From the NCBI RefSeq assembly GCF_058153355.1, contig NZ_CM177019.1: 64,000 nucleotides of DNA; one strand, given 5' to 3'. Under the pieces are notes generated by a model, which had not been told where the DNA came from, ran no database searches, and saw only the letters and a program-made list of their open reading frames with translations. A program made the translations under genes and the position numbers. Positions 53,534-53,549 of the stretch are shown here, one piece after another; the first letter of the stretch is position 1; every line of letters starts with the position of its first letter.

Positions 53534-53549
53534 CTGTCGATACGTACAG
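53534..53549 (-). promoter_or_regulatory. LexA (SOS) box upstream of ydjM
   Basis: CTGT-cgatacgt-ACAG palindrome (CTGT-N8-ACAG) 17 nt upstream of ydjM start. Confidence 0.55.

Follow-up and report, generated by a model that had tools for sequence, protein, structure and literature searches.

A palindrome, CTGTCGATACGTACAG in the plus-strand reading, at positions 53534-53549 of a 64 kb stretch of the E. coli chromosome (64,000 nucleotides, the whole of which is called the window below), is already in the literature as the LexA operator of ydjM in E. coli. It forms the core of the first of two abutting LexA boxes, and we assign a probability of about 93% to the whole reading, that is, the published SOS operator of ydjM made up of two abutting boxes. 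The window carries two SOS regulon promoters, those of ydjM and cho, and the significance of the result is mainly for annotation. The comparative data add to it in a small way: the arms are fixed and the spacer drifts, the 18-bp register of the two boxes is fixed over about 25 genera, and there is a candidate -10 element at the junction of the boxes.

The palindrome and its position relative to ydjM

The site was compared with the gammaproteobacterial LexA operator (SOS box), for which the consensus is TACTG(TA)5CAGTA. A preliminary description of this DNA had reported a CTGT-N8-ACAG palindrome at this location, and a search of both strands found it there and nowhere else in the 64 kb. The core pattern is expected by chance at a mean of 0.63 per window, and at least one match was present in 51 of 100 dinucleotide-preserving shuffles; the 16-base core, taken alone, is not significant. 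The 20-mer that includes it (box 1; Table 1) is an exact match to the inverted CTG...CAG arms with 10 bp between them. Four of the eight bases of the box 1 spacer, ACGTATCG, are G or C, unlike the (TA)n consensus, and this raises the heterology index. Because half of the spacer is G/C where the consensus has (TA)n, the affinity of box 1 for LexA is probably low. The box had previously been called canonical, which is correct for its arms and not for the remainder; with this spacer it is a weak-to-middling operator.

The second ACAG-containing element that had been mentioned as lacking a clean palindrome is real, and corresponds to box 2, with one good arm and one degenerate. Its left arm, CTGT, is good, whereas the right arm has CTA in place of CAG. 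The spacer between them, ATAAAAAT, fits the A/T-rich alternating pattern. Box 2 and box 1 have 2 nt (TA) in common, with 18 bp from centre to centre. The box 2 sequence has been given as the LexA box of K-12 b1728, at -52, which is position 53569 here (PMC4576408). The region, read in the direction of ydjM, is GCACTGTATAAAAATCCTATACTGTACGTATCGACAGTTTAGTGAGTTTTATCATG.

Coordinates for ydjM were carried over from the annotated E. coli genome EC42405, which is 99.8% identical to the window. The predicted product is a YdjM family inner-membrane putative metal-dependent hydrolase (Pfam PF04307, E = 7e-36). In relation to the annotated ATG at 53517, the 16-base core stops 16 nt short of the start codon, a distance of 17 positions and in agreement with the 17 nt originally stated. 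The list of open reading frames gives a 200-codon frame for ydjM on the minus strand, beginning at a GTG at 53529. This in-frame GTG (53527-53529, minus strand) lies four codons upstream of the ATG. Since it is absent in other genera while the ATG is conserved, we take the ATG at 53517 as the start, and the GTG is probably not used. Either start leaves the LexA box outside the gene; an intragenic position, which had been raised as a possible objection to the site, was not found, the box being upstream of the annotated start. Both boxes are intergenic and downstream of the terminator-like hairpin of hxpB.

Table 1. Coordinates of the predicted features of the ydjM region and of the cho LexA box
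Feature	Coordinates	Strand	Sequence or length	Remarks
LexA box 1 of ydjM	53551..53532	minus	TACTGTACGTATCGACAGTT (20-mer)	includes the 53534-53549 core; 14 nt to ATG
LexA box 2	53569..53550	minus	CACTGTATAAAAATCCTATA (20-mer)	32 nt to ATG
Putative -10 hexamer	53553..53548	minus	TATACT	straddles the box 2/box 1 junction; predicted; invariant in 81 sequences
Putative weak -35 hexamer	53571..53576	minus	TTCCGT	17 bp upstream of TATACT; predicted
Near-invariant block	53577..53592	minus	GTTACA(C/A)CGT(C/A)ACC	immediately 5' of the putative -35; most positions kept in 80/81 sequences
Terminator-like hairpin	53653..53672	minus		follows hxpB (yniC), the next gene upstream; stands between it and the promoter region of ydjM
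ydjM CDS	52927..53517	minus	196 aa	regulated gene; annotation mapped from EC42405
cho (ydjQ) LexA box	40453..40434	minus	CACTGGATAGATAACCAGCA	13 nt before the GTG at 40420; best matrix match in the window

Matrix scoring of the two boxes

Heterology indices were calculated with a matrix derived from 18 E. coli LexA boxes (PMC3009722, Table 4), ydjM not being among them; this is not the original matrix of Lewis 1994. Scoring of the site with a LexA matrix had been proposed in the preliminary description, with a high index as the outcome that would speak against it. The index found for box 1 was moderate, 10.2 with the oriented matrix and 11.0 with the symmetric one, and the corresponding values for box 2 were 9.75 and 12.1. 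The 18 known boxes, scored by leave-one-out, ranged from 0.6 to 12.8 with the oriented matrix only, and it is the oriented values that give a like-for-like comparison. Both ydjM boxes are inside the range of working operators, at its weak end. A heterology index of 9.0 has been published for ydjM (value from Courcelle 2001, given in a table of PMC11228462).

When the approximately 64,000 positions of the window were ranked, the top three matches were the cho box followed by the two ydjM boxes, and the fourth was clearly worse; box 1 was in third place with the oriented matrix and in second with the symmetric. Sites at least equal to box 1 in score turned up in 9% of 300 shuffled windows, and two sites of box 2 quality spaced 10-40 bp apart in none of the 300. 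The two 20-mers are well beyond chance. A simple LexA matrix recovers the SOS promoters of ydjM and cho in the 64 kb and nothing else.

Identity with the K-12 operator and published expression

Comparison with the published operator of ydjM (b1728) in K-12 showed the gene, distances and orientation to be the same, and both boxes and the stretch down to the ATG to be identical. The nearest difference between the window and K-12 is upstream of box 2, at 53578, where the window has T and K-12 has C. The ydjM operator was reportedly identified by Fernandez de Henestrosa et al. in 2000, who are said to have described its binding and regulation and to have added the gene to the SOS regulon; the LexA site is also said to have been seen by ChIP-chip by Wade et al. 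in 2005. In a review, ydjM is included in the list of LexA-regulated genes (PMC6590174). RNA-seq in K-12 found ydjM up 2.5-fold with AZT, and its expression was 8.6-fold lower in a non-cleavable lexA3 mutant (PMC11228462). For Salmonella, two ydjM boxes have been listed, with distances to the ATG of 14 and 32 bp and indices of 9.12 and 12.85 (PMC8072944, Table 1), and the gene was induced 2.1-fold by nalidixic acid (PMC8072944). The assignment of ydjM to the SOS regulon, made at first from the palindrome, is thus supported both by an operator identical to that of K-12 and by published LexA-dependent expression.

Within the species, 5422 of the 5426 complete E. coli genomes contain the 101-bp promoter stretch with an identity of at least 95%, apart from one exception, which has a 7-bp deletion in box 2 and an intact box 1. 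The natural 7-bp deletion, aligned to 53552-53558, is carried by E. coli NIPH17_0036 (L004), in which box 1 is intact.

Conservation of the operator in the Enterobacteriaceae

To the window were added 80 loci found by scanning a single genome for each species, with YdjM identities of 85-99%, which gave 81 sequences for comparison. They represent about 25 genera of the Enterobacteriaceae, including Escherichia, Citrobacter, Salmonella, Enterobacter, Lelliottia, Leclercia, Kosakonia, Raoultella, Atlantibacter, Franconibacter and Cedecea. When the 160 nt preceding the gene were ranked for LexA-like sites, box 1 came first or second in every sequence, usually 14 nt from the ATG. Box 1 has invariant CTG and CAG arms (TACTG, ACAG) in all 81. 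Positions 6, 8-10, 13 and 14 of the box were variable, and 23 distinct versions were present among the 81 sequences. Fixed arms around a drifting centre are the pattern that would be expected of a LexA site. The index of box 1 is better in most genera than in E. coli, with a median of 8.8 and commonly 7.9, versus 11.0 in E. coli.

The CTGTA arm of box 2 was kept in 78-79 of the 81 sequences, and the non-consensus arm, CCTATA, in every one. The 18-bp register of the two boxes was maintained in 78-79 of the 80 other species, with box 2 at exactly this distance in 78 of the 80 loci.

The genes hxpB, ydjM and tcyP have a conserved order. In most genera other than Escherichia (loci L010-L084; for example L032, 608-1405) there is, between hxpB and ydjM, an ORF of 265 aa that looks like a short-chain dehydrogenase of the KduD-like type. 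This extra ORF stops some 75-80 nt short of the ydjM ATG; Escherichia, Salmonella and a few other genera lack it. The promoter block does not differ between loci with hxpB directly upstream and those with the extra dehydrogenase gene in that place, and therefore belongs to ydjM.

Putative promoter and proposed mode of repression

A simple weight scheme identified TTCCG(C/T)-17-TATACT as the best σ70-like pair in the window and in about 79 of the 81 sequences; a stricter consensus promoter scan of the ydjM upstream region found no promoter. The predicted -10 hexamer would span the end of box 2 and the beginning of box 1, with transcription starting near 53541, within box 1. The two boxes would then cover the DNA from about -28 to +10, and bound LexA would occlude the start site together with the -10 region. 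In an undamaged cell, LexA dimers on the two abutting boxes would be expected to keep transcription of ydjM low; after DNA damage, self-cleavage of LexA stimulated by RecA would free the promoter. An operator match that is moderate (index about 9-11) would give modest repression and an induction of a few-fold, and the modest induction of ydjM may be attributed to this only moderate match. Four bases of the -10 hexamer, from its 5' end, would come from the poor arm of box 2, which would explain why CCTATA is frozen in every species. The -10 candidate at the junction of the boxes thereby offers a testable reason for the odd sequence of box 2.

The same coincidence can be read in another way, in which box 1 is the only true LexA operator and box 2 is promoter sequence, an A-rich spacer plus a -10 element, conserved for its contacts with RNA polymerase. 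This is possible, if somewhat doubtful. It would account for the presence of CTA instead of CAG in all 81 sequences and for the overlap of the invariant arm with the putative -10, and it is consistent with a symmetric index for box 2 that is borderline (median 13.7 in the 81 sequences). The one natural E. coli strain that has the 7-bp box 2 deletion and retains box 1 also points in this direction; in NIPH17_0036, the deletion also alters the distance between the putative -35 and -10 elements. However, the CTGTA arm of box 2 is retained almost throughout even though it would fall in the promoter spacer, which is usually free in sequence, and box 2 keeps a fixed register with box 1. Two recN boxes of Salmonella are also listed with an 18-bp spacing (PMC8072944), and box 2 itself has been reported as a LexA site in two publications (PMC8072944, PMC4576408). 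Lacking the CAG arm, box 2 may fail to bind LexA on its own.

We also considered whether the two boxes could act as a roadblock to transcription from a promoter farther upstream, CTGAAT-17-ATTAAT at 53640..53612. A genomic SELEX peak of RNA polymerase holoenzyme in the yniC-ydjM spacer has been assigned to such a sequence, CTGAAA-17-ATTAAT, with σ70 (PMC3946193), but the SELEX peak does not resolve which hexamers are used. The stretch at 53612-53640 (minus strand) is found in Escherichia only; in most other genera the end of a coding sequence precedes the ydjM ATG by about 75-80 nt, and the boxes and the adjoining block are conserved there nonetheless. The upstream pair also scored 0.86 bits, versus 6.4 for TTCCGT-17-TATACT. 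Because the stretch assigned by SELEX is limited to Escherichia and scores much lower, we rank a roadblock well below occlusion of the TATACT promoter, and consider it improbable. It is hardly credible that the palindrome is a chance match or part of a leader RNA hairpin in which LexA has no role: the frequency expected for the core pattern and a leader fold of -11.2 kcal/mol could be cited in favor, but the fold is no better than those of shuffled sequences (z = -1.6, with 15 of 200 shuffles folding as well), the changes in the box 1 spacer between species are not compensatory, and a chance match is excluded by the ranking beside cho, the pairing with a second box, the conservation of the arms and the published LexA-dependent expression. 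A search of the ydjM upstream spacer against Rfam gave no family match.

Related LexA operators

The second SOS promoter of the window, that of cho, serves an ORF of 295 aa (39533..40420, minus strand). As at ydjM, the SOS box is just upstream of the start codon. In contrast to ydjM, cho has a single box, with CTGG/CCAG arms and a better index, 5.7-7.0. Double LexA boxes that overlap are found at colicin genes. In recN, with three boxes, and lexA, with two, adjacent LexA boxes cover one promoter, as they would at ydjM; unlike these, ydjM has a second box with a single consensus arm, and its two boxes together make a weak pair. The recN boxes of Salmonella lie at 8 and 26 bp, and are thus 18 bp apart as are the boxes at ydjM (PMC8072944). 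The ydjM operator of Salmonella enterica has the same arms as that of the window and the same distances of 14 and 32 bp. Its box 1 spacer, TACTGTATGAATTGACAGTT, is nearer to the consensus, and the box has an index of 7.9 as compared with 11.0 in the window by the same matrix.

A conserved block upstream of box 2

Directly upstream of box 2, the near-invariant block and the putative -35 region together read GTTACA(C/A)CGT(C/A)ACC.CTTCCG (53571-53592, minus strand), and the same block is found in loci L005-L084, being conserved in 80 of the 81 sequences. In most genera the block is preceded by TTGTGAC, which creates GTGAC-N13-GTCAC; in the window and K-12 this preceding part is divergent. The block is conserved beyond what a weak -35 region would need. 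By eye, it was compared with the consensus sites for CRP, CpxR, OmpR and LacI-family proteins, and none of these fits. Two separate suggestions can be made from the conservation pattern, both of which we regard as unlikely: that the block is a candidate site for a further regulator acting with LexA, as a second layer of control, and that the invariant arm of box 2 doubles as a -10 element and a LexA half-site.

With up to one mismatch allowed, the 13-mer of the block has three matches in the window, compared with 0.39 expected; one of these is intragenic and one is upstream of ydjX, like ydjM an inner-membrane protein gene of the window. The ydjX copy, GTTATACCGTCAC, has one mismatch and lies at 30595-30607 (minus strand) in the xthA-ydjX spacer. 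It is 61-73 nt upstream of the ydjX start, and the 13-mer at ydjM is 63-75 nt upstream of its gene. The comparison of the ydjX copy was made within E. coli only, the YdjX homologs among the matches listed all being from E. coli; in the E. coli lineage MLI105 the copy has a substitution, GTTATACCGTCTC. The link between ydjM and ydjX through this 13-mer may be a coincidence.

At both of these places (29825-30535 and 52900-53700) the window belongs to an uncommon E. coli lineage. Across ydjM and its spacer, an identity of 99% or more was reached by only 67 of 5423 genomes. The window YdjX is 93-95% identical to the listed E. coli YdjX clusters, with two near-identical exceptions at 98-99%.
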